A stretch of DNA of 64,000 nt, from contig JBBSUV010000003.1 in the NCBI GenBank assembly GCA_038234075.1, forward strand, positions 65,136 to 129,135. Direction: 5' to 3'. Source of the DNA: Flavobacteriales bacterium (GTDB taxonomy: Bacteria > Bacteroidota > Bacteroidia > Flavobacteriales_F > PHOS-HE28). Of the stretch, positions 45,975-64,000 are shown piece after piece (position 1 is the stretch's first letter; each line of letters starts with the position of its first letter). The position numbers and the translations under genes are program-made. Below the pieces are notes generated by a model, which did no database searches, had not been told where the DNA came from, and worked only from the letters and a program-made list of their open reading frames with translations.

Positions 45975-47105
45975 CTAATCTCTACGCTTATTAACCTCTG
46001 CTTCCATCCGGGCTAGATTCACGCTCTTGCGATCATTGTCAGCCTTTAGGATTTTAGTGAGCTGTTGCACAAACATTGATGTATCTGCATAATAGTTCGG
46101 ATAGGCCTTCTTAAGGGCTTGGACAGACCCTGCCGATACAAGCACCACTTGGACACCTTTCTTGCCTCTGGTGCGTTCTTCCGCCTCCTCATATCGCTCA
46201 GTTGCTATGGCACTCTCTCTTTTAGAGAAGCCCGTCACAGTGAGGATTTTGCTATCCGGATCAAGTACCATCAAGTAGTACTCAGCTCGTTTAAGTTCAG
46301 GAGGAAGCTTGAAGAGCGCACTGAAGTTCATGAGCTTCGCTGCCACATTCAAATGCAAAGACAGACTAGCTGTTTCCTTTATCAATTCAACTGGATCAGT
46401 GGGTACTCCTTCAATTGCACTTTCAGTCTTTTCCTCAATCGCAAAAACCGAACTAACCAGCTGAAAGAATCGGTCCCATTCCGGTTCGCCTCTGCCGCTC
46501 TTGATCGCCGTTCCGTTCATAGTATCAACCGTCTCCACAGCAGTTGCCCAACAGTGCTGAAGGTGAGTTCGGAGTTGAATTTCGACTAGCTGGTCATCAA
46601 AAACATCGGTGGAGGATCCTTTGTATTTGTAAATGAGGTGGACACTCCTGTATCCGGATTTCTTCGGCTTAATCAAGTAGTTGTCAATCTTGACCAACTC
46701 ATGATCAATTGTTGCCGTCGACCGGTAGTAGTTCAGAATATCATTCACTTGCTTCATGTCTGATACAATGGCCCTACATCCGGCTATATCCTGCATTCGC
46801 TTCAGGCTCATGTGCTGTTGCTCCCGCAGTTTATTCAGTATTGAGGGTGTCCGCTTGAGTCGTTGAGCAACAATCGCTGTCCGACCGAACTTCCTAGCAA
46901 CCCAACGAAGTGTTACTTGGAATGTGTTCATCGGATAACTGTGGCAAGCCCTCCAATTGTCAAGTACTTCTTGTGCGTAAAGCCTTTCAGCCTCAGTAAT
47001 ATCCTCAGTTATCAGGAGCTTCCCAGCCTTTTCGATCTGATTGCGAGAATACTTACGCTCTGCCCAGTTTGCCATACTCCTTAGTGTCTTGGCAAGATAG
47101 AACAA
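45975..47105 (-). CDS. RelA/SpoT-domain nucleotidyltransferase with C-terminal extension (fused toxSAS / CapRel-like defence candidate)
   Basis: 376 aa in a locally low-GC segment. The synthetase motifs are DIAGCRAIV, SGYRSVHLIY and EIQLRTHLQHCWA. There is no hydrolase domain. The C-terminal domain is ~170 aa and uncharacterised. Confidence 0.7.
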   Translation of the reverse strand: MFYLAKTLRSMANWAERKYSRNQIEKAGKLLITEDITEAERLYAQEVLDNWRACHSYPMNTFQVTLRWVARKFGRTAIVAQRLKRTPSILNKLREQQHMSLKRMQDIAGCRAIVSDMKQVNDILNYYRSTATIDHELVKIDNYLIKPKKSGYRSVHLIYKYKGSSTDVFDDQLVEIQLRTHLQHCWATAVETVDTMNGTAIKSGRGEPEWDRFFQLVSSVFAIEEKTESAIEGVPTDPVELIKETASLSLHLNVAAKLMNFSALFKLPPELKRAEYYLMVLDPDSKILTVTGFSKRESAIATERYEEAEERTRGKKGVQVVLVSAGSVQALKKAYPNYYADTSMFVQQLTKILKADNDRKSVNLARMEAEVNKRRD

Positions 47106-47126
47106 TGCATCGTGAATATCCCATCT

Positions 47127-47192
47127 CCCACGCTCGGCTGGGTCAACAATATTTCCAGGCGCTCGGCTAAACGATAACCTCCCGGACCTGCC
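47127..47192 (+). repeat. island direct repeat copy 1 (~70 bp)
   Basis: CCCACGCTCGGCTGGGTCAACAATATTTCCAGGCGCTCGGCTAAACGATAACCTCCCGGACCTGCC. It is the most divergent copy and lies just 5' of the RelA/SpoT gene. Confidence 0.7.
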
Positions 47193-47399
47193 ACATGCCG
47201 TCCGGCGAACCGTCGGCCATCAAGGTCACGACATCAAGGTGCTCTCCCCCTCCGTCCCGCCGTTCGTTCTGAAAGCGCTTACACAGTTGGGATATGCCTA
47301 GAGTACGAGTGAAGAAGCTCGCGCCAGAGAGGGGGTGAAGACGTACGAGCTAGGACAGACTTGCAACTCGTAATGCTGATCCGAGGGCACGGGTCCAGA

Positions 47400-48650
47400 T
47401 CATTTGACTACAACGGTTTGCACCACTGTACTACCCGCATTCTGGACGCGCAACGAATACGTGCCCTTGGCAAACCTTGAAAGGTCGATCAACCGAATGT
47501 TTCTGGTCCCATTGCCGTTGAAGACCTCATTCTGCACCAACTGCCCCTTCACGTCGAAGACTTGCAGTGAGACCAAGCCCGACAGCTCTGTTTCCAATGT
47601 GAACTGGCCGGCATTAGGATTTGGGTAGACCCGGACGTTCCCGTTGACCGACATTTCATTCCCGTTGATCCCTTCACCGAGATCAACTGTGGTACAAAGG
47701 CCAGCGGTGTTGATGCATCCGTCCACATCGACATAGGTATAGGTCACACTGTGGGTTCCAACACCCGCCATTCCAGGGTCGAAAGTGCTACCGGATACCC
47801 CTGGGCCGATAAAGATACCTCCAGCAGGAACCCCAATCAATTCAACAATGCCATCAGTTGTGGTGTAAGATGCATCTAGACCAGTAAGGGAAACCGGCGT
47901 CTGACTACGACACGGGGATGCGGGCGTACCAGAGAACAGCCCCGTGATTTCTTGTTGGGATAATGCCCGGTCCCATATGCCAATATCGTCGATCAGTCCG
48001 CCAAATCCATCGAAGCCGGATATCGATTTCCTACCAATGTTCCAAGTTGTAGTAGTGCTTAATGGTGCATTGTTAATGCCTGTGTCTGTAAGGACACCAT
48101 CAATATATAGCGCGGCCTCACCGGCATTATAGTCAGAAGTGAATAAAATGTGGTGCCATTCGTATTTTGTAATTGCGAAAGTGGATGGCCATACTTGAGA
48201 ACCGGACGCGGCATATGAACATTTGATTGTTACCGTCGAGCCTATATCACTATTTACTATTATCCCTGGCTCACCGGAGGAGATTACTCTCGAATTGCTT
48301 GTAGCTGCGTCAAACCACACCCAACAGGAGATTGAGATTCTATCTGGCGACAGTTGGGGTAACGTACCTAAATCAATATAGTTGGAGCTGCTTAAGGAGT
48401 TGGGCCAGCTATAGGCACTATTCGAACTCCCAAAACGATCACTGGTTAGTGTGAGGGCTCCATTCACAGTTCCGTTATTCCCTGATCCGCTTTCATCATT
48501 CGCATCACCATTGAATGGCCACCAACCAACAAGGCCATTGGTGGGGATATAACTAGGGACTTGCGCAAACGCAAGGTTTGACAATACAATGATGGCAAGT
48601 GTTGCTAAGAGTGTCCTTCTTGCTCCCATTTTGGGTTTGTTTTGTTTCAA
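47400..48650 (-). CDS. secreted LamG/concanavalin-like domain protein with type-A T9SS C-terminal sorting domain
   Basis: Signal peptide (LLATLAIIVLSNLAFAQ), a LamG-like region, and a C-terminal Por_Secre_tail (VYPNPNAGQFTLE...GTYSLRVQ). Confidence 0.65.
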   Translation of the reverse strand: MKQNKPKMGARRTLLATLAIIVLSNLAFAQVPSYIPTNGLVGWWPFNGDANDESGSGNNGTVNGALTLTSDRFGSSNSAYSWPNSLSSSNYIDLGTLPQLSPDRISISCWVWFDAATSNSRVISSGEPGIIVNSDIGSTVTIKCSYAASGSQVWPSTFAITKYEWHHILFTSDYNAGEAALYIDGVLTDTGINNAPLSTTTTWNIGRKSISGFDGFGGLIDDIGIWDRALSQQEITGLFSGTPASPCRSQTPVSLTGLDASYTTTDGIVELIGVPAGGIFIGPGVSGSTFDPGMAGVGTHSVTYTYVDVDGCINTAGLCTTVDLGEGINGNEMSVNGNVRVYPNPNAGQFTLETELSGLVSLQVFDVKGQLVQNEVFNGNGTRNIRLIDLSRFAKGTYSLRVQNAGSTVVQTVVVK

Positions 48651-48747: not shown

Positions 48748-48822
48748 CCCCACGCTCGGCTGCGTCATCAATAGTTCCCGGCGCTCGGCTCAACGATAAC
48801 CTCACAGACCTGCCGAGTGCCC
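48748..48822 (+). repeat. island direct repeat copy 2 (~75 bp)
   Basis: CCCCACGCTCGGCTGCGTCATCAATAGTTCCCGGCGCTCGGCTCAACGATAACCTCACAGACCTGCCGAGTGCCC, followed by a GC hairpin. Confidence 0.75.
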
Positions 48823-49002: not shown

Positions 49003-49242
49003 ATGACCACTCTAGAGCTAAGGGCCGAGATCAACCAGTTGCTGAGCCACGAGAACAACACTTCCGTGCTGGAGGCGATACGTATGCTTTTGCGCAGGGA
49101 AGAAGCGGATGTTGATGATGACTTCACCGATGAGGAGATCGCCGAGCTCGAGCAACGCCGCGCGCGCTATCTGAGCGGAGAGAGTAAGCCCCATACCGTG
49201 GAAGAATCCATGCGTCTTGCACGCGAAGGGTTCAAGCGGTGA
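49003..49242 (+). CDS. type II antitoxin (addiction-module component)
   Basis: 79 aa; acidic; 4-bp overlap with downstream ParE-like toxin. Confidence 0.55.
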   Translation: MTTLELRAEINQLLSHENNTSVLEAIRMLLRREEADVDDDFTDEEIAELEQRRARYLSGESKPHTVEESMRLAREGFKR

Positions 49243-49529
49243 ATTTCACGGTTCAAGTCCTACCGGAAGCTACTGAGGAGGTCGGGGTGATCTTCGGCTA
49301 TTATGAAGACAAAAAATCCGGTTTGGGGAAACGCTTTCAACAAGCACTGAACGCGTGTTACGAGGATCTGGCGCTCGATCCGTGGAGGCAGAAGCGCAAG
49401 GGCGTTTTCCGGCATGCCATGATCCAAAAGTTCCCCTATCGCGTGGTGTATGAAGTTCATGGCAAACGTGTGATCGTTTACCAAGTGCGCCACACCAGCC
49501 GCAAACCCAGTAAGAAGTTCGGGCCGTAA
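49239..49529 (+). CDS. type II toxin RelE/ParE family
   Basis: 96 aa; KFPYRVVYEVHGKRVIVYQVRHTSRKP. Confidence 0.65.
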   Translation: MNFTVQVLPEATEEVGVIFGYYEDKKSGLGKRFQQALNACYEDLALDPWRQKRKGVFRHAMIQKFPYRVVYEVHGKRVIVYQVRHTSRKPSKKFGP

Positions 49530-49554
49530 TCACAGGCTGACCAAGCCGCTGAGG

Positions 49555-49628
49555 AGACCCCATCCCCGCGCTCAGCTGGGTCAACAATAGTTCCCGGTGC
49601 TCGGCTCAACGATAACCTCACAGACCTG
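49555..49628 (+). repeat. island direct repeat copy 3 (~74 bp)
   Basis: CCCCGCGCTCAGCTGGGTCAACAATAGTTCCCGGTGCTCGGCTCAACGATAACCTCACAGACCTGCCGAGTGCCC, followed by a CCGCC..GGCGG hairpin. Confidence 0.75.
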
Positions 49629-49801
49629 CCGAGTGCCCGGCTCCTGTCCGCCTCTGGCGGGCTCTGCGATACGGATATGAGTGTTGAAGATGGCCGGTGG
49701 CCGCAAGAGTTGGGCACTCGGGAACTCCGGATGAGACTCCGGGGCCGAGCGCCGGGTTCAGAGAGACTCTGCGTTCCGGACGGGCCAAACTGTCATAGCA
49801 C

Positions 49802-50110
49802 TCAACGCCTTCTTTCTTCAAACCGGCTTTTCAGGTCCATCCTTTCGTGTAGGACCCTGATGATCTCGATCTCCAGTTCGTTCAAGGCCATGAAGAATAC
49901 GATATGCCGACCGGTGCGCACTCCTTTCAGGCCCGCACGGATCTCGTCATAGTTCCTGCCTGAACCAGGGTTGTCGGCCAATTCTTGAAAAGCATCCAAA
50001 AAATCCCGGTAGTATTTGTCTGCTTGCTTTTCTGACCATCGATCGAATGTGAAATTCCAGATGTCCCCTAGATCTCCGATAGCCTTGTTAGAGAGGATAT
50101 ACCTACCCAT
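49802..50110 (-). CDS. parE: type II toxin ParE
   Basis: 102 aa; MGRYILSNKAIGDLGDIWNFTFDRWSEKQADKYYRDF...GRHIVFF. Confidence 0.75.
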   Translation of the reverse strand: MGRYILSNKAIGDLGDIWNFTFDRWSEKQADKYYRDFLDAFQELADNPGSGRNYDEIRAGLKGVRTGRHIVFFMALNELEIEIIRVLHERMDLKSRFEERRR

Positions 50111-50354
50111 TCGTTCCCCTCTTGGCCTTCAGTTCCGCAAGATGTTCCTTCGGATCGAAGTCCTTGGCGAGCCCACTCTGCACGCCCTCTTCAATGGCCA
50201 TGCGCAAAGCAGATATTTTACTCTCCTCTTCCTCCAATAACCGCAGCGCGGCGCGGATCACCTCGCTGATATTCCCGTAGCGGCCTTCGGTTACGCTCCG
50301 TTGAATGAACTGCTCATAATAGGAGCCGAGTGAAACGGGGGTGTTCTTGCTCAT
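50103..50354 (-). CDS. parD: type II antitoxin ParD
   Basis: 83 aa; GRYGNISEVIRAALRLLEEEE; 8-bp overlap with parE. Confidence 0.75.
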   Translation of the reverse strand: MSKNTPVSLGSYYEQFIQRSVTEGRYGNISEVIRAALRLLEEEESKISALRMAIEEGVQSGLAKDFDPKEHLAELKAKRGTNG

Positions 50355-50523
50355 TGTTCAATGCTTCCATCCCAAAGGTAACGTGCTTAGGGACATTCCG
50401 GCAGTCTTCAGCCTGCTGCGCGGAACCACCCCGTTCCTTCCTCTTGGATAGCTTCGCCTTTCGAGGCCGGTCACAAAATGTGACCACCTTATGAAACGCT
50501 GGCCTCCGATATGGAAGCCCTCG

Positions 50524-50793
50524 TCACTTATCGCCGTAGTGCCCTTTGCAGCTCATTACTTCTACCGATCCTTCACTGGTCATTCGATAGACCAACCGGT
50601 GCTTTTCATCGATCCGTCGGGACCAATACCCTTTGAGTGCTCCTTTCAATGGTTCCGGCTTACCCACGCCTTTGAAGGGTTCGCGCAGGATAGCCTTGAT
50701 CAAGTCGTGGATCTTGATGTACCGCGCTTTGTCGTAGATGCCCCAGTCGCAAAAATCATCGTAGGCGTTCTGCTCGAAGATAATGCGCTTCAT
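50524..50793 (-). CDS. yoeB: type II toxin YoeB/Txe family (copy B)
   Basis: 89 aa; 2 aa substitutions relative to copy A. Confidence 0.8.
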   Translation of the reverse strand: MKRIIFEQNAYDDFCDWGIYDKARYIKIHDLIKAILREPFKGVGKPEPLKGALKGYWSRRIDEKHRLVYRMTSEGSVEVMSCKGHYGDK

Positions 50794-51047
50794 GCCTTGA
50801 GGCGCTCCATCACCATAGCGTCCAGATCAGCCTCTGAAAGTGTGACGGAGTTTCCTTTTTCAAGGTTCTTGATCGCCTTGTCCAAGCGCTGGAGGTAGAC
50901 CTTCTTGCTTTCCGAGCGTGTCAACTCGAAATCCGTACTGGAGCGGATGGTAAGCGTGAGCTCGCGGTCCTTGTCGAACAAGCGTTTGATCTTGTTCAAC
51001 AGGTCCATGTCCAACTCCGATACCTTGATGCGCAGGCTTGTTTCCAT
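50790..51047 (-). CDS. yefM: type II antitoxin Phd/YefM family (copy B)
   Basis: 85 aa; 3 aa substitutions relative to copy A. Confidence 0.7.
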   Translation of the reverse strand: METSLRIKVSELDMDLLNKIKRLFDKDRELTLTIRSSTDFELTRSESKKVYLQRLDKAIKNLEKGNSVTLSEADLDAMVMERLKA

Positions 51048-52150: not shown

Positions 52151-55100
52151 TTAGCGGATCAAAGTCACTTTACCCGAGCGGTCAAAGTCCTGGCCTTCCA
52201 CCGATGTGGCGACGACCGTGTAGACGTACACCCCGTTGATCTCCGGCTTCCCGTTGTGGGTGCCGTCCCATCCGAACTCAGGGTCGCTGGTCTCGAAGAC
52301 CATTTCGCCCCAGCCGTTGAAGACCTTCAGTTCCATGGTCTTGAAGGGGCCACCGCGGACGAAGAAGACGTCGTTCACTCCATCGCCGTTCGGGCTGAAA
52401 GCGTCCGGTAGTTTCGGTGGCACGATCTTGTTCTCGGTGATCGCGATGAGCATGGAATCGGAGGCGGTGCAGCCTGCAGCATTGGAGACCGTCTGCACGA
52501 TGATGTACTGACCTCCCTGGGTATAGGTGTGCGTGGGATCCTGGGAGAGCGAACCCTGACCATCACCGAAGTTGTAATGCCAGCCGTTGCCTCCGAAGGA
52601 ATTGTCCTCGAACACGATCGACTCACCAGTGAAGGCATCCCCGGTGAAGGAGAAGCCTGCCGTGGGTGCGAACATCACCTCCACTACTTGGCTGGTGGTG
52701 GCGCTACAGCCGTTCTGTGCGAATACTGTGAGCGTTACCGGATACTGTCCCGCTCCAGCGAAGGCGTTGCCAGCCTGTTGACCAGCTGCAGTGCTGCCGT
52801 TGCCGAAGTCCCAGTTCCAGCCGATGATGGGCGAACCCGTGGTGGTGCTGGCATCGGTGAAGGCCGTGTTCGATCCTGCACAAGCGTTGCCGAAGTTGAA
52901 GGCAGCGTTCAGCGGGTTCACGAACGACAGCTTCACGGTATCCACCGCTGCGGCGCAGAAGAGGTCACCCGTGGTGGTGAGGAACAGTTCCACTTGTTGC
53001 AATTGGGAGTCGCCGGTGCTGGGCTGGTAGGTGGCATTGGCCGTGGTGTTGTTCGGCAGGAAGATGCCGGAACCGTTGGTGGTCCATTGCAAGCCCGTGG
53101 CGCCGTTGTAGATACCTGCCAGCTGCACATCCGCCGAGGCGTCGCAGGTGGTAATGTCCGTGCCTGCGTTCACCGTGGAAGGCTGGTGCATGTTCACTGC
53201 CAGCGTATCGGTGTGCGCGGGGCAGCCCATGTTACCGGTGGTGGTGAGCACGAAGCTCAGTTGCTGGAACACCAGGTCCGGTGCGCTCGGCACGTAGCTC
53301 GCGTTCAAGGCATCGGCATTCGGCAGGAAGGTGCCTGTGCCGTTCGTGGTCCACGTGCCACCGCTCACTCCTGTGATGTTTCCGGCCAGTTGGACGATGC
53401 CACCATTGGCACACACGTCCAGGTCAACACCAGCGTTCGCGATCCGTGTGGGGCCCACTCCGATGAAGAGCGAATCCGATGCGTTGCCGCAGGTGCCCGT
53501 GCCGTAGGCCGTGAGGATCAGGTGTACGCCACCTGCGATGCTGTCATTGGCCGTAGGTGTGTAAGTAGCGTTCAGCGTATTGGCATTGGGGCTAAAGGTG
53601 CCCGTGCCTGCGGTGATCCATCGCACCAACGAATCGTTCTGCGCGGTGCCATTCAGTTGGATCGGCGACAGGCCATTGCAGAGCAACAGGTCCGTGCCGG
53701 CGTTCACCGTTGGTGGCACATGGTAGCTCACCACCAAGGTGTCCTTTCCGGCGGGGCAGCCCGCGTTGTTGGTAGTGCTCAGCACCAGGGAAATGTCACC
53801 GATCACGAAGTCCGCTGGGCCCGGGATGTAGGTGGCGTTGAGCGCCATAGCTGAAGGGCTGAAGGAACCCGTACCCGTGGTGCTCCACATGCCCGTGGTG
53901 GTACCTGCAACTGCGCCGTTCAGCGAAATGTTAGGCGCCGTGCTGCAAGTGATCACGTCTTGACCGGCCTGTGCAGAGAGCCCGCCGCCGAAGGTGATGG
54001 TGAGTGCATCCGACACCGCGCTGCAAGGCAGGGTGCCCGTGGTGGTCACGGTGAGCGTCACGGTTCCCAGTGTGCTATCAGCTACGCTTGGGTAGTAGAG
54101 CGTGGCCAAGGCATTGGCATCGAAGAAGGTGCCCGTGCCCGAAGTCGTCCACGTACCGCCAGGCGCATTGGCTGCATTGGCGGCCAACTGTACAGGTGCG
54201 CTCGTGCAAGCGACCACATCGCTACCGGCCATGATGTTCGGCACGGCCCGCAGGTTCAACGTCATGGCATCGGAGGAAGCCGCGCAGGAGCCGTTGGTGA
54301 TCGTAGTGATCGTCAACTGCACTGAACCCGCTGCGATATCCGCATTGCTGAGCGTGTAGGTAGCGTTCGGATCCGTGTTGTTGCTGAAGGATCCCGAGCC
54401 GGAAGTGCTCCACTGGATGCCTTGTGCTCCGCCGCTGAAGTTGCCCGCGAGCTGGGCGATCGGTGAGTTGACACAGAGGCTCTGATCCGGACCGGCGTAA
54501 GCAAAGCTGGTGTTACCGAAGGTCAGCGTCATCTGATCGCTACCGCTGGGGCAAGTGCCCGTGTTGGTAGCGGTGAACGTGAGCACAACCGAGCCGTTGG
54601 CCACATCGGCCGCGGAGAAGAAGTACTGCGCGTTGAGCACATCGGCATTGGGCTGGAAGGTGCCCGATCCGGTGGCTGTCCAAGTGCCCGAAGGCGATCC
54701 GTTCTGAACGGTGCCCAACAGATTGGCATGGTCGGAGAGCACACACACGCTCTGGTCCGGCCCAGCGCTCACGATGATTCCAGCGGTGAGATAGATCGTC
54801 ATCGCATCGCTCACCGCGCCGCAGTTGCCGTTGTTCAAGGAGGTGAGCGTGAAGTTGATCTGACCCGCAGCGATGTCCGCAGCACTTGCCGTGTACGTGG
54901 TGTTCAGTGCACCTGCGTTGGCGATGGTGCCGGTGCCTGTGGTGGTCCACTGGCCCACCGTGGTGATGCCGGATATCATTCCGCTCAGGTTGAACTGGCT
55001 CACTTGGTCACAGTAGGTCTGGTCCGCTCCTGCGTTCACATAAGGTGCTGGTGTCAGCTGCAGCGTCATGGCATCGCTGGCGTTGTTACAGCTGTTCACC

Positions 55101-58100
55101 GCGTTCAGCGTCAAGGTCAGCGAGCCGATGGCGGTGTCGATGTTGCTGGGAATGTAGGTGGGCGTCAGCACGCTGTTGCTCGGATAGAAGGAACCCGTGC
55201 CGGAGGTGGTCCACTGCACTTGGGTGGCATCGCCGCTGAGCGTTCCAGTGAGCTGCACCGTGGCGTTGTTCGCGCAGAAGCTCAGGTCCGGACCAGCGTT
55301 CACGTTGCCGGAAGGTTGGATGGCGATATACACCGTATCCACAGCCGCGGTGCATGCACCGGTGTTGGTGGCGGTGAGCACCAGCCTCACACCGTGTGCT
55401 AAGGAATCCTGGGCGCTGGCGTGGTAGATGTTGGCGAGCGCATCAGCCGGGTTGGCGAAGCTGCCCGATCCCAACGTGCTCCACACGCCGGTGGAAGAGG
55501 CACCGCTCACTTGGCCATTGATCAGCACGTTCAGGTTACCGAAGCAGACCACTTGATCGGCCCCAGCATTCGCGCTGGAGACCGGCACGATGGTCACGCT
55601 CATCTGATCCATGGCATTGTCACAGCTGTTCACGCTCCAGGTGAAGGTGAGCGTGCCTTGGGTCGCATCGCCCGGAGCCACTTGGTACACCGCGTTCGCA
55701 GCACTGGCGTTCGGGTTGAAGGAACCTGCACCGTTCGTGGTCCAGTGACCTTCAGTGGCGTTACCGCTGATGCTACCGGCCAGTTGCACGGTGGCTTGGC
55801 TTGCGCAGATGCTTTGGTCAACACCGGCGTTGGCGACGGCGTTCGGAAGGATGGTCAAGGTCATCATGTCCGACACCACGTTGCAGAGACCGTTGTTGGT
55901 GGAAGTCAAGGTGAGATCCACAGTGCCGTTGAGTGAATCCAGTGCACTGGCCATGTACGTGGCATTCAGCGTGGTGGCGCTCGGGAAGAAGGTGCCTGTG
56001 CCGCTGGTGGTCCAGGTACCGGTGGTGGATCCACCTTGCACGCTGCCCGTCATCGGCACTTGCAGTGCACTGGAACAGGTGGTGACGTCCGGACCGGCGC
56101 TCACCACAGGGGCGGGCGTTACGGCGAGCATCACTTGGTCCACTACGGAGAGGCAGTTGCCATTGCCAGTGGTGGTGAGCGTAAGCGCCACGCTGCCGGT
56201 CTGCAGTTCGAAGCTCGAAGGCACGTACTGTGCGTTCAGTGTCTGTGCGTTCGGCGTGTAGCTGCCGAGGCCACCGCTCCATTGTGCGCCACCGGCCACC
56301 GTGATCGCACCGTTCAGCGTTACCAGCGGGTTGTTGGCGCAAACGTCCATGTCCATACCGGCATTCACTGTGGGCGCTGGCGTGAAGGTGATGGCGAGAG
56401 TATCGCGCACAGCGAAGCAATTGCCGTTGCCGGTGGACGAGAGATAGAGGTTCAAGCTACCCGAAGCGATCTCCAATGCCGTGGGCGTGTACACGGGACT
56501 GAACACGTTGTTGGAAGGGCTGAAGGTGCCGCTTCCACCGGACCATGCACCACCGTTCGCGTTGTCCACGTTTCCGCTGAGCTGCACTGCCGCGTTGTTG
56601 GCGCACACAGCCTGATCCATGCCGGCATTCACCACAGGTGCATCGGTGAAGTAGACCGTCATCTGGTCGACGACTGCAGCACAGAATGTGGTGCCCGTGG
56701 AAGACAGCGTGAAGGTGATGGAACCTGCCGTTACCTCCGCCTCAGTGGGCGTGTACTGCAGCGCCAGCGAGGTGTTGTTCGGGAAGTAGTTGCCATTTCC
56801 TCCGGTCCATTGGCCGCCCGAGGCGTTGCCCACAAAGCCGTTCAGCTGGAAGTTCGGGTTGTTGCCGCAGATCTGTTGATCCGGTCCGGCGTTCACCACA
56901 GGAACAGGATCCACGATGATCACGAGGCTGTCGCGCACCGCATTGCAATTCCCGTTGCTGGTGGAGGTGAGCACCAAGGACATCTGTCCAGCGGCGATCT
57001 CAAGCGCAGTAGGCTGGTAAGTGGCGTTCAGCGTCTGGGCGTTAGGCGTGAAGACACCTGCACCGCCGCTCCACGCGCCGCCATTGGCCACGGTGATCGC
57101 ACCGGCCAATTGCACCTCGGAACTGTTGGCGCACACATGAGCATCCAAGCCCGCATTCACGATTGGCGCCGGAGTAAAGTCCAAGCGCACGGAATCGCGG
57201 GAGGCCAAGCAGCCGCCGTTGCCGGTCGAGGTGAGATAGAGCCACAATCCGCCTGCGCCTACTTCAGCAGCGCTCGCCGTGTACACCGCGTTCAGTGCAG
57301 TGGCATTCGGACTGAAGGATCCAGCACCGCCGCTCCATGTACCGCCGGTAGCATTGGTCACCTGGCCATTCAACGAGGCAGCGATGTTGTTGGCGCAAAG
57401 GGTTTGTGCGGCACCGGCCTCCACTACTGGAGCGGCGGTGATGTTGATGGTCACTTGAGCACTCACTGCATTGCAAAGTCCGTTGCCGGTGCTGGTCAAG
57501 GTGACCGTGGCCGTGCCTGCAATTACTTCAGCAGCGGAAGGTGTGTAGATGGCGCTCAGGCTGTTCGCATTGGGCGAGAAGCTGCCTGCACCGGTCCATG
57601 TTCCGCCCGTAGCGTTCTGCACCGATCCGGCCAGTTGCACACTCGGGTTGTTCGCGCAGGACTGCATGGGTTGACCAGCGTTCACCACTGGTGCTGGCGC
57701 GATGGTCACCACCATCTGGTCGTTCACGGCGCTGCACAGCGCATTGCCCACTGTCGTCAAGGTCAACGTGACAGTGCCTGCGGAGATCTCCGCTGCGGTC
57801 GGTGTGTACACTGCATTCAGGATGCCGCTGTTCGGCGAGAAGCTGCCCGCTCCACCGCTCCAGATGCCGCCCGTAGCTACGGTAACAGATCCGTTCAATT
57901 GCAAGGTGGCGTTGTTCGCGCAGATGCTCGCGTCCAGTCCAGCGTTGGCCGTGGGCGCAGGTGTGAAGGTGTAGGTCACTTCGTCGGTTACCGCCGTGCA
58001 ACCGCTGTTGCCCGTGGTGGTAAGCACCAGCGTGGCGCTCCCTGCGGCGATCTCACCTTGTGAAGGTGTGTACACCGCGTTCAGTGCATTGGCGTTCGGG

Positions 58101-61100
58101 CTGAAAGTTCCTCCTCCGCCGCTCCACGTTCCGCCATTGGCGACGGTGACACTGCCGGCCAATTGGATAGCCGCATTGTTCGCGCAACGCACACCATCCA
58201 CACTGGCGTTGGCCGTCGGCGAAGCGGTGAAGGTGATCAGCACTTCATCAGATACCGGCACACAATTGCCGTTACCGATAGTGGTCAAGGTCAAGGTCAT
58301 GGTACCGGCTGCGATCTCCGTTGCGGTCGGGATGTACACCGCGTTCAGCGATGCGATGGAAGGCGTGAAAGTGCCTGCACCACCGCTCCATTGTCCGCCA
58401 CCAGCACCGCTAACGGAACCACCGAGCTGCACTTGTGCATTGTTCGAGCAGACGAAGAGGTTGTTGCCCGCGTTGGCGGTTGGCGAAGCAATGATCGTGA
58501 TCGTCATCTGGTCGTTCACCGCGTTGCACAAGCCGTTCTGGGTGGTCGTGAGCGTGAGCGTTGCAGTACCCAGGGCCACCTCAGCAGGATTGGGGTGGTA
58601 GGTCGCGTTCAGCGTGTTCGCATCGGGCGACCAAGTGCCACCGCCGCCGCTCCATACACCGCCAGTGGCGATGGTCACCGCGCCGTTCAGGATAACTGAA
58701 GGATCGTTGGCGCAGACGGTGCGGTCCACTCCTGCATTCACCGTTGGGCTTTGCGAGAAGTAGATCGTCATGGCATCGTTCACCGGTGTGCAGGTGCCGT
58801 TGCCAGTGCTGGTGAGGGTAAGCGTCACTGAGCCATTCGCGAGTTCAGTAGTGCTTGGGGTGTACACCGCATTCAGCGCGTTGATGCTTGGTGAGAAGCC
58901 GCCCGTGCCACCGCTCCAGCTGCCGCCCGTGGCGTTGCTGATGGAGCCGGTCAGTTGGACACTGGAGTTGTTCGAACAAACCGTGCGATCGATACCAGCC
59001 TCCACAACTGGTGCAGGTGCGAGGGTGATCACCACTTGATCGGACACGACGTTGCAAGTTCCGTTGTTCGTGGAGGTCAGTGTCAATGTGACGGTGCCTG
59101 CGGCGATCTCACCCAAGGTCGGGGTGTAGGTAGCGTTCAGGTTGTTCGTGCTGGGGTTGAAAGTGCCCGAGCCGCCGCTCCACACACCGCCACCCGCGTT
59201 GTTCACGACACCAGCCAGTTGTGCGGTTGGGTTATTGGCGCACACGGTGAAGTTGTTGCCGGCGTTCACAACCGGTGCAGGAGAGATCGTGATCACGATC
59301 TGGTCTATCACCGGATTGCTATTGCCATTGCCCACGGAGGTGAGCGTAAGCGTCACGCTACCTGCGGCGATCTCGGCCGCTGAGGGATAGTAAGTGGTGT
59401 TGAGTGAAGTGTTGTTCGGCGTGTAGCTGCCGGTGCCGCCACTCCAGATACCACCCGTTGCGATGGTCACGCTGCCACTTAGGACAACGACCGCATTATT
59501 GCCGCAGATCACTTGGTCCGGACCGGCGTTGGTCGAGGGCGCATCGCTGAAGGTGATGATCATGGCATCGGTGGCCGCAGCGCAGGAACCGTTGCCCGTG
59601 GTGGTCAAGGTCAAGGTCACGCTGCCGGAAGCGATCTCCGCTGGCGTGGGCGTGTACACCGCGTTGGTGGTCGTGTTGTTCGGGTTGTAAGTACCCGCGC
59701 CGCCGGACCATACCATACCGCTGGCGATGGAATAGGAACCAGCCAAGGTGGTCGCTGCATTGTTGGCGCTTACAGATTGGTCAACGCCTGCATTGGCTAC
59801 CGGAGCCGTGGTGAAGGTGATCTGCACTTGGTCGGATACCGCTGCGCAATTGCCGTTGCCAGTGGTCGTGGCAGTTAGCGTCACCAAGCCGTTGGACACC
59901 TCGATCGTCGAGGGTGTATAGGTGATGTTCTGTGCGGTGCTTCCTGGTGAGTAGAGGCCGCTTCCACCGGACCACTGCACGCCAGTGGCCACCGTGATGG
60001 CGGCGCTCAGCATCGCGCTACCGTTGTTCCCGCAGAGGGTCTGGTCCACACCGGCGTTCACTGTCGGTGCAGGCGTGATAGTGAAGTGCACCTGGTCCGT
60101 TACCGGGTTGCAGGTGCCGTTTCCGGCCGAGGTGAGCGTGAGTGTGAAGCTACCAGCGGTGATCTCTGCCGCATTCGGTGTGTAGGTTGCATTGAGTGTG
60201 ATGCTGTTCGGGCTGTACGTACCGTTGCCGCCGCTCCAAACCCCGCCCACTGCTCCGTTCACGCTTCCGTTAAGGGTGACTGCTGGCGAATTCGCACAGA
60301 CAATGCCATCCAGTCCTGCGTTCACGATCGGCGCAGGTGTGTACGTGATGATGCGGGTATCGCTGGCAGGTGTGCAGTTGCCGTTGCCCGTGGTGGTCAA
60401 GGTGAGCGTCACCATGCCCGCAGCGATATCGCCAGGTCCGGGGTTGTAGGTCGCGTTCAATGTGTTCGCGTTCGGCGTGAAGCTGCCGGTGCCACCGGTC
60501 CAAGTACCGCCAGTTGCGATCACCACGCTGCCGTTCAGGGCCACGCTGCCATTGTTCGCGCAACGGGTCACATCAGGTCCTGCGTTCGCGGAAGGCGCAT
60601 CGGTGAAATTGAGCACCACTTGATCGATAGCCGCATTGCAAAGGCCGTTGCCGGTGGTGGTGAGCGTAAGCGTTACGCTGCCGTTGGTGATCTCCATCGC
60701 TGTCGGCGTGTAGATCGCGCTCATGTTCGTGGTGCTCGGATCGAAGGTGCCGTTGCCGCCGCTCCAGATTCCGCCAGTTGCCACGGTGAAGGCACCGGAC
60801 AGGGAGGTCACTGGATTGTTGGCGCAAAGCACACGATCAGAACCGGCGTTCGCCGTAGGTCCGGGAGTGATCGAATAGGAAACTTGATCGCTCACTGCGG
60901 TGCAATTGCCATTGCCCACCGTGGTAAGAGTTAGTGTGACGCTGCCTGCAGTACGCTCCGCAGCGCTGGGCGTGTAAGTGGCGTTGAGTGTGCTACTGTT
61001 CGGGCTGTAGGTACCGGTTCCTCCGCTCCAGATGGCTCCGGAAGCACCGTTGACAACACCGGCCAAGATGAGCGCCGAGTTATTCGCGCAGACCGTTCCG

Positions 61101-64000
61101 TTCATGCCGGCATCCACCGTGGGTGCTGGCGTGAAGTTGATCAGCTTGCTATCCGATACCAGACCGCAGTTGCCGTTGCCGGTGCTGGTCAAGGTGAGGA
61201 TCAGCGAACCTGCGGCGAGTTCCGAAGGCGTTGGTGTGTAGACCGCATTCAGCGTGGTGTTGTTCGGGGTGAAGGATCCCAGACCGCCGCTCCAGATGCC
61301 GCCCGTGGCCACCGTTACGGTTCCGTTCAAGGACACGTTCGCATTGTTCACGCAGACCGTTGCATCCGTTCCGGCATTCACCGTGGGTGCTGGCGTGAAT
61401 GCCAAGGTGATCGCATCGGAGACAGCCACGCAGTTGTTGTTGCCGGTGGTGGTGAGTGTGAGCGTAACCGAGCCGTTGGAGATCTCATCGGCAGTCGGCG
61501 TGTAGGTGGCGTTCATGTTCGCCGCGCTTGGGCTAAAGGTGCCCAAGCCACCGCTCCATGCGGCACCGGTAGCTACCGTGAATCCGCCGACCAAGGTGGC
61601 CGTCGCATTGTTGGCGCAGAGGCTCTGGTTGGGGCCGGCGTTCACCGTTGGTGCAGGTGTGATCGTCCAGGTCACCTGATCGCTCACTGCACTGCAGAGG
61701 CCGTTACCGGCAGAAGTCAATGTCAAGGTCACCGTGCCTGCGGTACGTTCCGCAGCGGTCGGTGTGTAGATCGCGTTCAGCGTTGAACTGTTCGGGCTGT
61801 AGGTGCCGTTGCCACCGCTCCAGATAGCGCCGGTAGCTCCATTCACGCTACCGACCAGTTGCATGGCAGGTGCGTTCGCACAGACCGAAGCATTCAGTCC
61901 CGCATTCACAGTGGGTGCGGGAGAGAAAGTGATGAGTTTGCTGTCCGAAGTTGCTCCGCAGTTACCGTTGCCGGTGCTGGTGAGCGTAAGGTTCAAGGTG
62001 CCGCCCGCGAGTTCTGCAGGAGTTGGCGTGTAAGTAGCGTTGAGGTTCGTGTTGTTCGGGGTGAAGGAACCGGCACCGCCGCTCCATACACCTCCAGTAG
62101 CGATGCTCACGCTGCCACTCAATGCCACGCTCGCATTGTTCACGCAGACAGTAGCATCAAGACCTGCATTCACCGTCGGGGCAGGTGTGAAGTTCAACAT
62201 CACCGCATCGGACACTGCCACGCAATTATTGTTGCCGGTGGTGGTCAAGGTCAGCGTCACGGATCCATTGGAGATCTCCCCCACAGTGGGCGTGTAGGTG
62301 GCGTTCACGTAAGAAGCGCTCGGGCTGAAGATGCCCAGGCCGCCGCTCCAAACAGCGCCGGTCGCCACACTGAAGCTTCCGTTCAAGGTCGCCATGGCGT
62401 TGTTCGCGCAAAGGCTTTGATCGGCCCCGGCATTCACTGTCGGTGCAGGTGTGATCACGTAGGTCACCTGGTCGTTCACTGCATTGCACTGGCCGTTGCC
62501 GGTGGTGGTCAACGTGAGGGTGACGGTGCCGGCCGTGCGCTCAGCGGCGCTCGGTGTGTACACCGCATTCAAGGTCGTGTTGTTAGGGTTGTAAGTGCCC
62601 GTTCCGCCAGTCCATGTAGCACCCGTTGCGCCATTCAAAACACCAGCCAAAGTGATCGCGCTGGAATTGGCGCAGACCGTTCCGTTAGGACCGGCATTCA
62701 CCGTAGGAGCTGGGGTGAATGTGATCTGTTTGCTGTCGGTTACAGGCGAGCAATTGCTGTTGCCTGTGGTCGTCAATACCAAGTTCACGATCCCGTTGGC
62801 GATCTCCGTCGCGGTCGGGGTGTAAGTGGCGTTGAGGGCCGCGTTGTTCGGCGCGAAGGATCCGGCTCCGCCGCTCCACACACCGCTGGTCGTACCCGTC
62901 ACGCTGCCGTTCAGCACCACACTCGCATTGTTCGCGCAGCGGGTCACATCCGCACCGGCGTTTGCCGTGGGTGCTGCGGTGAAACTCAACACCATGGCAT
63001 CGGAAACCGCAACGCAGTTGTTGTTGCCGGTGGTGGTCAACGTCAATGTCACTGAACCGTTCGCGATCTCTACAGCCGTTGGCGTGTAGGTCACGTTCAT
63101 GTTCGATGCACTCGGGCTGAAGGTGCCCAAACCACCGCCCCAGGTAGCACCCGTGGCCACCGTGAAACTTCCGTTCAAGTTCGCCACGGAGTTGTTCGCA
63201 CAAAGGCTCTGGTTCGCACCAGCGTTCACCGTTGGTGAAGGCGTGATCACGTACGTCACTTGGTTGCTCACCGCGTTGCAAATGCCATTGCCGGTGGTGG
63301 TCAGTGTGAGTGTTACCGTACCCGCCGTGCGCTCAGCTGCGCTCGGTGTATACACCGCGTTCAAGGTGGTGTTGTTCGGATTGAAGGTGCCCGTGCCGCC
63401 GGTCCAAGTGGCACCGGTGGCTCCGTTCATCACACCGGCCAAGTTGATCGCACTGGCATTGGCGCAGACCGTTCCGTTAGTACCGGCACTCACCGTAGGA
63501 GCCGGCGTGAAAGTGATCTCTTTGCTGTCCGTTGTAGCTGAGCAATTGCTGTTGCCCGTGGTGGTCAATACCAAATTCAAGATCCCTGCGGAGATCTCTG
63601 CTGCGGTCGGCGTGTAGGTCGCATTCAGCGCTGCGTTGTTCGGGGTGAAGGATCCGGCACCGCCGCTCCACACACCACCGGTTGCGATCGTCACGCTTCC
63701 GTTCAACACCACGTTCGCATTGTTTGCGCAACGCGTTACATCCACACCGGCATTCGCAGTAGGTGCTGCTGTGAAGCTCAACACCATCGCATCAGAAACC
63801 GCAACGCAGTTGTTGTTGCCCGTGGTGGTCAACGTCAGGGTAATGGAACCGTTCGCGATCTCTGCAGCTGTAGGCGTGTAGGTCGCATTCACATTGGAAG
63901 CACTTGGGCTGAACGTGCCCATCCCACCGCCCCACGACACACCCGTGGCTACGGTAAACCCGCCTGCGAGTGTCGCCACTGCATTGTTCGAGCAAAGGCT
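52151..64000 (-). CDS. giant SprB-like gliding-motility cell-surface adhesin, C-terminal ~3950 aa (gene continues beyond window)
   Basis: The protein is about 38 tandem ~95-aa repeats of the form C.NN..L.G.V..ATGG.WSGG.G.F.PN...LNA.YTP...E...G...L.LT.TGNG.C. Two PKD-like domains follow. The type-B T9SS CTD is PDAFSPNGDGVNDVF...GVYVY...GKVTLIR. The first Met in the ORF table is internal. Confidence 0.8.
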   Translation of the reverse strand, partial: SLCSNNAVATLAGGFTVATGVSWGGGMGTFSPSASNVNATYTPTAAEIANGSITLTLTTTGNNNCVAVSDAMVLSFTAAPTANAGVDVTRCANNANVVLNGSVTIATGGVWSGGAGSFTPNNAALNATYTPTAAEISAGILNLVLTTTGNSNCSATTDSKEITFTPAPTVSAGTNGTVCANASAINLAGVMNGATGATWTGGTGTFNPNNTTLNAVYTPSAAERTAGTVTLTLTTTGNGICNAVSNQVTYVITPSPTVNAGANQSLCANNSVANLNGSFTVATGATWGGGLGTFSPSASNMNVTYTPTAVEIANGSVTLTLTTTGNNNCVAVSDAMVLSFTAAPTANAGADVTRCANNASVVLNGSVTGTTSGVWSGGAGSFAPNNAALNATYTPTATEIANGIVNLVLTTTGNSNCSPVTDSKQITFTPAPTVNAGPNGTVCANSSAITLAGVLNGATGATWTGGTGTYNPNNTTLNAVYTPSAAERTAGTVTLTLTTTGNGQCNAVNDQVTYVITPAPTVNAGADQSLCANNAMATLNGSFSVATGAVWSGGLGIFSPSASYVNATYTPTVGEISNGSVTLTLTTTGNNNCVAVSDAVMLNFTPAPTVNAGLDATVCVNNASVALSGSVSIATGGVWSGGAGSFTPNNTNLNATYTPTPAELAGGTLNLTLTSTGNGNCGATSDSKLITFSPAPTVNAGLNASVCANAPAMQLVGSVNGATGAIWSGGNGTYSPNSSTLNAIYTPTAAERTAGTVTLTLTSAGNGLCSAVSDQVTWTITPAPTVNAGPNQSLCANNATATLVGGFTVATGAAWSGGLGTFSPSAANMNATYTPTADEISNGSVTLTLTTTGNNNCVAVSDAITLAFTPAPTVNAGTDATVCVNNANVSLNGTVTVATGGIWSGGLGSFTPNNTTLNAVYTPTPSELAAGSLILTLTSTGNGNCGLVSDSKLINFTPAPTVDAGMNGTVCANNSALILAGVVNGASGAIWSGGTGTYSPNSSTLNATYTPSAAERTAGSVTLTLTTVGNGNCTAVSDQVSYSITPGPTANAGSDRVLCANNPVTSLSGAFTVATGGIWSGGNGTFDPSTTNMSAIYTPTAMEITNGSVTLTLTTTGNGLCNAAIDQVVLNFTDAPSANAGPDVTRCANNGSVALNGSVVIATGGTWTGGTGSFTPNANTLNATYNPGPGDIAAGMVTLTLTTTGNGNCTPASDTRIITYTPAPIVNAGLDGIVCANSPAVTLNGSVNGAVGGVWSGGNGTYSPNSITLNATYTPNAAEITAGSFTLTLTSAGNGTCNPVTDQVHFTITPAPTVNAGVDQTLCGNNGSAMLSAAITVATGVQWSGGSGLYSPGSTAQNITYTPSTIEVSNGLVTLTATTTGNGNCAAVSDQVQITFTTAPVANAGVDQSVSANNAATTLAGSYSIASGMVWSGGAGTYNPNNTTTNAVYTPTPAEIASGSVTLTLTTTGNGSCAAATDAMIITFSDAPSTNAGPDQVICGNNAVVVLSGSVTIATGGIWSGGTGSYTPNNTSLNTTYYPSAAEIAAGSVTLTLTSVGNGNSNPVIDQIVITISPAPVVNAGNNFTVCANNPTAQLAGVVNNAGGGVWSGGSGTFNPSTNNLNATYTPTLGEIAAGTVTLTLTSTNNGTCNVVSDQVVITLAPAPVVEAGIDRTVCSNNSSVQLTGSISNATGGSWSGGTGGFSPSINALNAVYTPSTTELANGSVTLTLTSTGNGTCTPVNDAMTIYFSQSPTVNAGVDRTVCANDPSVILNGAVTIATGGVWSGGGGTWSPDANTLNATYHPNPAEVALGTATLTLTTTQNGLCNAVNDQMTITIIASPTANAGNNLFVCSNNAQVQLGGSVSGAGGGQWSGGAGTFTPSIASLNAVYIPTATEIAAGTMTLTLTTIGNGNCVPVSDEVLITFTASPTANASVDGVRCANNAAIQLAGSVTVANGGTWSGGGGTFSPNANALNAVYTPSQGEIAAGSATLVLTTTGNSGCTAVTDEVTYTFTPAPTANAGLDASICANNATLQLNGSVTVATGGIWSGGAGSFSPNSGILNAVYTPTAAEISAGTVTLTLTTVGNALCSAVNDQMVVTIAPAPVVNAGQPMQSCANNPSVQLAGSVQNATGGTWTGAGSFSPNANSLSAIYTPSAAEVIAGTATVTLTSTGNGLCNAVSAQVTINITAAPVVEAGAAQTLCANNIAASLNGQVTNATGGTWSGGAGSFSPNATALNAVYTASAAEVGAGGLWLYLTSTGNGGCLASRDSVRLDFTPAPIVNAGLDAHVCANSSEVQLAGAITVANGGAWSGGAGVFTPNAQTLNATYQPTALEIAAGQMSLVLTSTSNGNCNAVRDSLVIIVDPVPVVNAGPDQQICGNNPNFQLNGFVGNASGGQWTGGNGNYFPNNTSLALQYTPTEAEVTAGSITFTLSSTGTTFCAAVVDQMTVYFTDAPVVNAGMDQAVCANNAAVQLSGNVDNANGGAWSGGSGTFSPSNNVFSPVYTPTALEIASGSLNLYLSSTGNGNCFAVRDTLAITFTPAPTVNAGMDMDVCANNPLVTLNGAITVAGGAQWSGGLGSYTPNAQTLNAQYVPSSFELQTGSVALTLTTTGNGNCLSVVDQVMLAVTPAPVVSAGPDVTTCSSALQVPMTGSVQGGSTTGTWTTSGTGTFFPSATTLNATYMASALDSLNGTVDLTLTSTNNGLCNVVSDMMTLTILPNAVANAGVDQSICASQATVQLAGSISGNATEGHWTTNGAGSFNPNASAANAVYQVAPGDATQGTLTFTWSVNSCDNAMDQMSVTIVPVSSANAGADQVVCFGNLNVLINGQVSGASSTGVWSTLGSGSFANPADALANIYHASAQDSLAHGVRLVLTATNTGACTAAVDTVYIAIQPSGNVNAGPDLSFCANNATVQLTGTLSGDATQVQWTTSGTGSFYPSNSVLTPTYIPSNIDTAIGSLTLTLNAVNSCNNASDAMTLQLTPAPYVNAGADQTYCDQVSQFNLSGMISGITTVGQWTTTGTGTIANAGALNTTYTASAADIAAGQINFTLTSLNNGNCGAVSDAMTIYLTAGIIVSAGPDQSVCVLSDHANLLGTVQNGSPSGTWTATGSGTFQPNADVLNAQYFFSAADVANGSVVLTFTATNTGTCPSGSDQMTLTFGNTSFAYAGPDQSLCVNSPIAQLAGNFSGGAQGIQWSTSGSGSFSNNTDPNATYTLSNADIAAGSVQLTITTITNGSCAASSDAMTLNLRAVPNIMAGSDVVACTSAPVQLAANAANAPGGTWTTSGTGTFFDANALATLYYPSVADSTLGTVTLTVTTTGTLPCSAVSDALTITFGGGLSAQAGQDVITCSTAPNISLNGAVAGTTTGMWSTTGTGSFSPSAMALNATYIPGPADFVIGDISLVLSTTNNAGCPAGKDTLVVSYHVPPTVNAGTDLLLCNGLSPIQLNGTAQNDSLVRWITAGTGTFSPNANTLNATYTPTANDSIAGGVHLILTAYGTGTCGNASDSLFIGVGPTRIANAGVDLDVCANGGIVQLAGNITGVSGGTWTTNGTGTFLPNADALNASYVPSAPDLVFQQLSFVLTTTGNMGCPAHTDTLAVNMHQPSTVNAGTDITTCDASADVQLAGIYNGATGLQWTTNGSGIFLPNNTTANATYQPSTGDSQLQQVELFLTTTGDLFCAAAVDTVKLSFVNPLNAAFNFGNACAGSNTAFTDASTTTGSPIIGWNWDFGNGSTAAGQQAGNAFAGAGQYPVTLTVFAQNGCSATTSQVVEVMFAPTAGFSFTGDAFTGESIVFEDNSFGGNGWHYNFGDGQGSLSQDPTHTYTQGGQYIIVQTVSNAAGCTASDSMLIAITENKIVPPKLPDAFSPNGDGVNDVFFVRGGPFKTMELKVFNGWGEMVFETSDPEFGWDGTHNGKPEINGVYVYTVVATSVEGQDFDRSGKVTLIR

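Follow-up and report, generated by a model that had tools for sequence, protein, structure and literature searches.

A candidate single-polypeptide CapRel defense protein in a variable chromosomal slot of a Flavobacteriales bacterium

A minus-strand gene at 45975-47075 of a 64,000-nucleotide (nt) stretch from a Flavobacteriales bacterium (contig JBBSUV010000003.1 of assembly GCA_038234075.1, positions 65,136 to 129,135; hereafter the window) encodes, judged from its sequence, an ordinary, intact member of the known CapRel family, whose toxin-antitoxin systems consist of one protein and act against phage. We propose, with a probability of roughly 0.8, that its product is a single-polypeptide CapRel defense protein that is auto-inhibited in cis and pyrophosphorylates tRNA when released by phage. 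The open reading frame (ORF), its domains, the full-length homology to CapRel(SJ46), residue conservation, the predicted fold, the solitary arrangement, foreign composition, and hotspot location were computed here. By analogy with characterized homologs, the protein would be auto-inhibited, act on tRNA, be triggered by phage, and abort infection.

The ORF listing gives 45975-47105 on the minus strand, or 376 amino acids (aa) when translation is started at an upstream TTG. The ATG at 47075 is likely the true start, since both an identical database protein of 366 aa (P0001) and a 119-sequence family alignment begin there; the first residues are then MANWAERKYS..., and the ten surplus codons (47076-47105) are probably untranslated. 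Residue numbers below refer to the 366-aa form and its coding sequence, 45975-47075 including the stop. In an initial annotation made without database searches, the product was described as a synthetase-only protein lacking HD, TGS, and ACT domains and close in length to the 373-aa CapRel(SJ46), and these observations are borne out. The PF04607 search it had proposed returns RelA_SpoT as the sole Pfam match at E <= 1 (E = 1.3e-18, aa 81-188 in 376-aa numbering); HD, TGS, and ACT domains are all absent from the Pfam results, and the 373-aa length of CapRel(SJ46) is correct. The three synthetase motifs it quoted, D..G.R, GY.S.H, and EIQ.RT..QH.WA, are present as D96-I-A-G99-C-R101, G141-Y142-R-S-V-H146, and EIQLRTHLQHCWA spanning E165-A177, respectively. 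Likewise, no plausible separate antitoxin gene adjoins the ORF, as the annotation had stated: the 174-bp downstream and 294-bp upstream spacers hold only ORFs of 41 aa or fewer.

Full-length kinship to CapRel(SJ46) of Salmonella phage SJ46 (Zhang et al. 2022, PMC9712102) carries the assignment. In a phmmer search of all PDB chains, query residues 5-341 match residues 11-368 of the CapRel(SJ46) structures 7ZTB and 9ERV at E = 1.8e-40, and a BLASTP comparison with the SJ46 protein, as deposited in the phage record, yields E = 1e-47 at 32% identity. RelQ and RelP match over the catalytic core only (~1e-9), with phmmer alignments that end near query residue 176-190, and RelA chains match the synthetase core alone at E ~0.2 in the single-sequence PDB search. 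Searched against the PDB, a profile of the 119 homologs places CapRel(SJ46) at 1.2e-77 over its whole length, RelQ at 7e-20 over the core only, and FaRel2 at 0.095; Tas1 goes undetected. These values do not favor the FaRel-like identity that the initial annotation had offered as an alternative. Membership in a FaRel/Tas1-type family of (pp)pApp synthetases is also rejected: Tas1 is absent from the matches, the only FaRel-named relative is the marginal, tRNA-targeting FaRel2, and no immunity ORF lies alongside. The central proposal of that annotation, a CapRel-like fused toxin-antitoxin, stands on the full-length SJ46 homology, on 7ZTB and 9ERV as the top structures, on the retained residues, on the lack of an antitoxin gene, and on the hotspot context described below.

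Two further groupings cover the protein over its full length, PADLOC model PDC-S33 (E = 1.3e-119) and PHROG 4773 (3e-101). Both were defined computationally and carry neither a name nor a function, and a search of the available literature library for PDC-S33 found no mention of it. Because CapRel(SJ46) matches the same PADLOC model (7e-87), PDC-S33 is in effect the fused CapRel family, and by these scores the window protein lies nearer its center than the type member does. More than 6,000 homologs are found in the protein database at E <= 1e-5, the closest of which (P0002) shares 64% identity. Together with the PDB and PADLOC scores, this puts the signal well beyond chance.

The residues that matter in CapRel(SJ46) have clear counterparts in the alignment. 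Its G-loop tyrosine is Y155, its YXXY neutralization motif is Y352/Y355, and substitution of the interface residues A77, V338, L339, A341, or A351 renders it constitutively toxic (PMC9712102). On the catalytic side, A77, R79, D111, R116, and Y155 map to A70, R72, D96, R101, and Y142 of the window protein, and on the C-terminal side V338, L339, A341, A351, Y352, and Y355 map to V311, L312, S314, A324, Y325, and Y328. The ATP site therefore corresponds to R72, D96, and R101, with D96 as the catalytic aspartate, Y142 marks the G-loop, and the YXXY motif reads Y325-P-N-Y328. Two of the mapped residues vary among the 119 homologs, A70 between Ala and Val and S314 among Ser, Gly, and Ala, and the others are invariant; R72, K74, D96, G99, R101, Y142, E165, and Q167 are likewise invariant, and the protein retains 35 of 35 family-invariant residues. 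In the family alignment, the catalytic domain and the YXXY switch show low column entropy (1.30 and 0.98 bits), and values are high for the anchors (1.99), the pseudo-zinc-finger domain (pseudo-ZFD; 2.07), and the C-terminal tail (2.84). The same pattern of conserved and variable parts has been reported for CapRel, where it is attributed to an arms race with phage triggers (PMC9712102). The C-terminal surface of the window protein is divergent by alignment, as is normal for the CapRel family.

The predicted structure places these residues in a CapRel-like layout. A full-length AlphaFold2 (AF2) model built with the family alignment is confident (predicted local distance difference test score [pLDDT] 92.9; predicted template modeling score 0.88) and runs from N-terminal helices through a five-stranded synthetase core and three anchor helices to the pseudo-ZFD elements, a short helix, YPNY, and a long C-terminal helix. 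The modeled pseudo-ZFD is beta-beta-alpha-beta (strands 266-272 and 277-283, helix 285-301, strand 309-314) with flanking helices, a topology identical to that published for the pseudo-zinc-finger and anchors of CapRel(SJ46) (PMC9712102). Foldseek against the PDB ranks 7ZTB/9ERV best (E ~1e-23, 355-358 aligned columns, template modeling [TM] score 0.65-0.73), followed by RelQ and RelP at E ~1e-8 over the core only, with a root-mean-square deviation (rmsd) of ~3 Å over ~180 residues.

The C-terminal ~170 aa had been called unknown, possibly a novel sensor, and this description does not hold, since the region aligns with the CapRel anchors, pseudo-ZFD, and YXXY motif. Modeled alone (residues 200-366, pLDDT 89.6), it has significant PDB matches to CapRel chains only (E = 8e-5 to 2e-4; next best 0.23), and for this reason we consider it the CapRel antitoxin/sensor region. 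The comparison with the pseudo-ZFD that the initial annotation had suggested thus recovers a known domain arrangement, and a novel C-terminal domain is ruled out by sequence and isolated model alike. A match to the RelQ/RelP oligomerization region, named beforehand as an outcome that would speak for a housekeeping enzyme, is lacking from the C-terminus.

By position on the minus strand, the protein begins with an N-terminal helical extension (aa 1-63; 46887-47075) that AF2 folds into helices 11-21, 28-44, and 46-63 and that holds the near-invariant residues W41, R42, H45, P48, N50, T51, F52, Q53, and R57. N-terminal helices of FaRel2 bind tRNA (PMC11782079), and by analogy with such tRNA-targeting enzymes of the toxic small alarmone synthetase (toxSAS) kind the extension may be a tRNA-docking element. 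The toxSYNTH catalytic domain follows (aa 64-187; 46515-46886), supported by the Pfam match and the invariant residues, with R72 and K74 in beta1 and D96, G99, and R101 in beta2. Variable anchor-1 helices (aa 188-255; 46311-46514; AF2 helices 198-214, 228-242, and 244-253) link it to the sensor, which comprises the pseudo-zinc-finger (aa 256-316; 46128-46310), bearing the interface residues V311 and L312 in its last strand. The YXXY motif (46092-46103) precedes a C-terminal helix (aa 336-366; 45978-46070; AF2 helix 329-365) that extends anchor-2. The last ~20 residues of this helix are missing in most homologs, with a gap fraction of 0.78-0.90 for aa 351-366 in the family alignment.

Like CapRel(SJ46), then, the window protein is a single polypeptide with no separate antitoxin gene, and its N-terminal helices, toxSYNTH, anchor-1, pseudo-ZFD, YXXY, and C-terminal helix follow one another in the order seen there. 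It differs in a pseudo-ZFD that has lost ~15 residues relative to CapRel(SJ46) at beta6 and the beta6-beta7 loop, the region that in CapRel(SJ46) contacts the capsid protein, and in its extra ~20-aa helical tail; the gene is also chromosomal in a Flavobacteriales bacterium rather than part of a recognizable prophage. CapRel(Ebc) of Enterobacter chengduensis, compared by its published description, belongs to the same fused family but has an enterobacterial host and a different sensor surface (PMC13423816). In the FaRel2/ATfaRel2 and PhRel/ATphRel systems, a toxSYNTH that pyrophosphorylates tRNA is similarly blocked at its ATP donor site by the YXXY motif of a pseudo-ZFD-type antitoxin, although toxin and antitoxin are encoded by separate genes and form hetero-oligomers (PMC11782079). 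The profile similarity to FaRel2 is marginal. RelQ and RelP (PDB 5DEC, 6EWZ, 6FGK) share the synthetase core fold; however, they are only ~210-240 aa long, have no ordered N-terminal extension and no anchors, pseudo-ZFD, or YXXY, synthesize (p)ppGpp, and assemble into tetramers via C-terminal helices that have no counterpart here.

From these parallels a working model can be drawn. The N-terminal toxSYNTH portion (aa ~1-187) would act as a pyrophosphokinase. At rest, the C-terminal anchors, pseudo-zinc-finger, and Y325-P-N-Y328 switch would fold back and shut toxSYNTH off in cis, with the YXXY element covering the ATP (pyrophosphate-donor) site that R72 and R101 form. In an infected cell, a protein made by the phage, perhaps in combination with one from the host, would bind the variable anchor/pseudo-ZFD surface and keep the protein open. 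Once open, the enzyme could pyrophosphorylate the 3' CCA end of tRNA with ATP as the donor, halting translation and aborting the infection. CapRel(SJ46) itself pyrophosphorylates tRNA (PMC9712102), and indirect support for a tRNA substrate comes from a published rule: toxSAS enzymes that target tRNA are paired with pseudo-ZFD/YXXY elements blocking the donor site, and (pp)pApp synthetases with Tis1-like blockers of the acceptor site (PMC11782079). The known triggers differ between family members: SJ46 responds to a major capsid protein and to Gp54, a small protein (PMC11578894), and CapRel(Ebc) to a complex of T7 Gp0.4 with FtsZ (PMC13423816). The trigger of the window protein is therefore not predictable; the CapRel(Ebc) example makes a non-capsid trigger plausible.

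The AtpA protein of the window falls in a 90%-identity cluster whose members are annotated as metagenome-assembled genomes of Flavobacteriales bacterium, in line with the stated host. CapRel lies between atpG and sprF, with components of the type IX secretion system (T9SS) among the neighboring genes, and its composition (GC 0.47; third-codon-position GC [GC3] 0.50) departs from that of its flanks (GC3 of 0.83 for atpA, 0.85 for atpG, and 0.81 for sprF). By composition, then, the gene is foreign and appears to be carried as recently acquired DNA. The adjacent gene at 47400-48629 (minus strand), whose product combines LamG (Laminin_G_3) with a sorting domain for T9SS at the C-terminus, is equally foreign (GC3 0.49). 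The two genes also stand side by side on an independent assembly (L002), which suggests joint acquisition.

In three close relatives (L083-L085), blastn shows ~90% DNA identity until 45803, 3 nt past the atpG stop, followed by a break and a return to 87% from sprF. The segment 45804-48952, which contains the CapRel and LamG/T9SS-tail genes, has no counterpart in these genomes; the same slot instead holds a 190-aa protein and an AAA_15/AAA_21 ATPase (L083 12527-14578). These two match the PADLOC candidate system HEC-01, the ATPase as HEC-01A (6e-81) and the 190-aa protein as HEC-01B (4e-16). The window slot further carries three consecutive type II toxin-antitoxin pairs (49003-51047), namely Unstab_antitox-like/ParE on the plus strand, ParD/ParE on the minus strand, and YoeB on the minus strand with an 85-aa upstream partner (50790-51047). 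That partner matches nothing in Pfam or PADLOC and could belong to an unassigned antitoxin family. The close relatives carry two or three YoeB copies in the slot. Overall, the atpG-sprF slot is a variable hotspot for defense and toxin-antitoxin genes. A search for tRNA genes and Rfam families as island-boundary marks returned no matches within the whole window. On the far side of the slot, next to PorP/SprF, a giant minus-strand ORF (52151-63979) of at least 3,942 aa runs past the window end; with its ~90-aa repeats and terminal PKD/CHU_C-type domains, it probably encodes a protein for gliding or adhesion that resembles SprB and, like its counterparts in relatives, measures ~6,600 aa.

A repeat of ~75 nt (minus-strand core GGCACTCGGCAGGTCTGTGAGGTTATCGTTGAGCCGAGCGCCGGGAACTATTGTTGACCCAGCCGAGCGTGGG) occurs three times in the window and only within this slot: ~50 bp upstream of the CapRel start (47126-47200), upstream of the LamG gene (48748-48822), and between two of the toxin-antitoxin pairs (49564-49637). 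In relatives, this element is found upstream of the gene for the HEC-01 ATPase (L083 14680-14758), where it bounds the HEC-01 cassette, and it resembles either the edge of a cassette or an upstream element that is portable. The repeat, located also at L173 ~838-858, is not a genome-wide element and is nearly absent from the metagenome collection, a scan of which gave two matches, one from this hotspot and the other seemingly due to chance. A structured RNA or attC-like site is also rejected, as the folds differ between copies and are no better than shuffled sequences save for one copy on one strand.

Several observations weigh against a functional CapRel defense protein. Sequence identity to CapRel(SJ46) falls from 32% overall to ~22-24% in the C-terminal part, and the interface residue A341 is replaced by S314, serine being the commonest residue at that family column. 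The full-length model superposes on the CapRel crystals with an rmsd of 8.5 Å over 355 columns, a value compatible with a closed model compared against open crystals without proving a closed state. The C-terminal fragment superposes only moderately on 7ZTB/9ERV (query-normalized TM score 0.38-0.44, rmsd 6.6-7.9 Å). In addition, the acceptor substrate cannot be read from the sequence, and homologs often sit in ordinary chromosomal contexts instead of defense islands.

Given its low identity to CapRel(SJ46), it is possible, though doubtful, that the sensor surface formed by anchor-1, the shortened pseudo-ZFD, and the extra C-terminal helix recognizes a kind of trigger not yet described, such as a Flavobacteriales phage protein or a phage-host complex, and that the atpG-sprF slot is a hotspot where defense genes are swapped at a lineage-specific ~75-nt repeat. 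Were this so, Bacteroidota would gain their first CapRel of demonstrated function.

The ordinary contexts of many homologs, which are solitary in housekeeping neighborhoods (for example, after a type II secretion system operon), and the three adjoining type II pairs (ParE/antitoxin, ParE/ParD, and YoeB/antitoxin) could instead indicate that this intact fused toxin-antitoxin is a selfish addiction or island-stabilizing module, or a responder to non-phage stress. We regard this as improbable. A fused cis antitoxin is unable to give the usual post-segregational killing through differential decay, and three of three tested members, SJ46, Ebc, and Kp, defend against phages (PMC9712102, PMC11578894, PMC13423816). 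Relatives carry a candidate defense pair in place of CapRel in the slot, and the sensor varies as expected of a host-phage interface.

Even less probable is a fused, auto-inhibited toxSAS whose toxicity stems from alarmone synthesis, either (pp)pApp with ATP depletion or (p)ppGpp, rather than tRNA pyrophosphorylation. Acceptor specificity is not directly legible in the sequence, and the core is closer to the (p)ppGpp synthetase RelQ than to tRNA-targeting FaRel2 in the profile search. Nonetheless, by far the closest characterized relative is the tRNA-pyrophosphorylating CapRel(SJ46), donor-site neutralization by pseudo-ZFD/YXXY is reported with tRNA-targeting enzymes, no Tis1-like or hydrolase gene is adjacent, and the profile leaves Tas1 undetected.

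That the gene is an inactive remnant, acquired but no longer expressed or functional, is very unlikely. The ~20-aa C-terminal tail is unusual, and a scan for sigma-70-type promoters and terminators, which does not model Bacteroidota promoters, found none near the gene and a single match inside it on the wrong strand; against these stand the intact frame, the complete set of family-invariant residues, the confident AF2 model, and the same gene with the same neighbor on L002. Least likely of all is a housekeeping RelQ/RelP-like small alarmone synthetase of the host, for which RelA_SpoT as the sole Pfam match and a weak NCBIfam YjbM (RelQ) similarity (56 bits, far below the cut-off of 320) could be cited, but which is effectively refuted by RelQ/RelP alignments (about query 58-190) that spare the C-terminal 170 aa, by a C-terminus matching CapRel only, and by a gene of foreign composition that is missing from close relatives at the locus. 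A long RelA/SpoT homolog (Rel, RelA, or SpoT) is excluded by its missing HD, TGS, and ACT domains and by RelA chains that match the synthetase core only.

The family is widespread. Species-representative genomes contain at least 565 loci with relatives, which span many bacterial phyla as well as DPANN archaea, and at least 169 viral contigs encode relatives; Bacteroidetes are already named among CapRel-bearing phyla in the literature. The sampled homologs are solitary genes in varied neighborhoods. The gene for the closest homolog, P0002 (L086/L087 7245-8357), is immediately followed by a DUF3800 gene, upstream of which it lies; the contig is Bacteroidota-like and has a T9SS-tail protein nearby. 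Full-length fused homologs (~40% identity) are common in DPANN-type archaeal metagenome-assembled genomes (MAGs) of Woesearchaeota, Nanoarchaeota, and Micrarchaeota and occur in one Methanobacteriota MAG (L003, L023, L032, L038, L043, L044, L047, L051, L057, L061, L063, L065, L067, L069, L073, L075, and L077-L079). P0080 of Cupriavidus sp. BIC8F (438 aa) is a CapRel homolog with an added DUF2188 (PF09954), possibly a variant sensor or an extension.

In summary, the current understanding of CapRel is unchanged by this gene, as the family, its mechanism, and its wide distribution, Bacteroidetes included, are already described. Its divergent sensor surface, Flavobacteriales host, and cassette-like hotspot are only mildly unusual. 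The slot itself is a clean natural example of defense-gene replacement, CapRel versus HEC-01, at one chromosomal site. If the protein is active, it would extend experimentally grounded CapRel biology beyond enterobacterial prophages to an environmental Flavobacteriales lineage and would provide a divergent sensor with which to study how the pseudo-zinc-finger diversifies against phage proteins.

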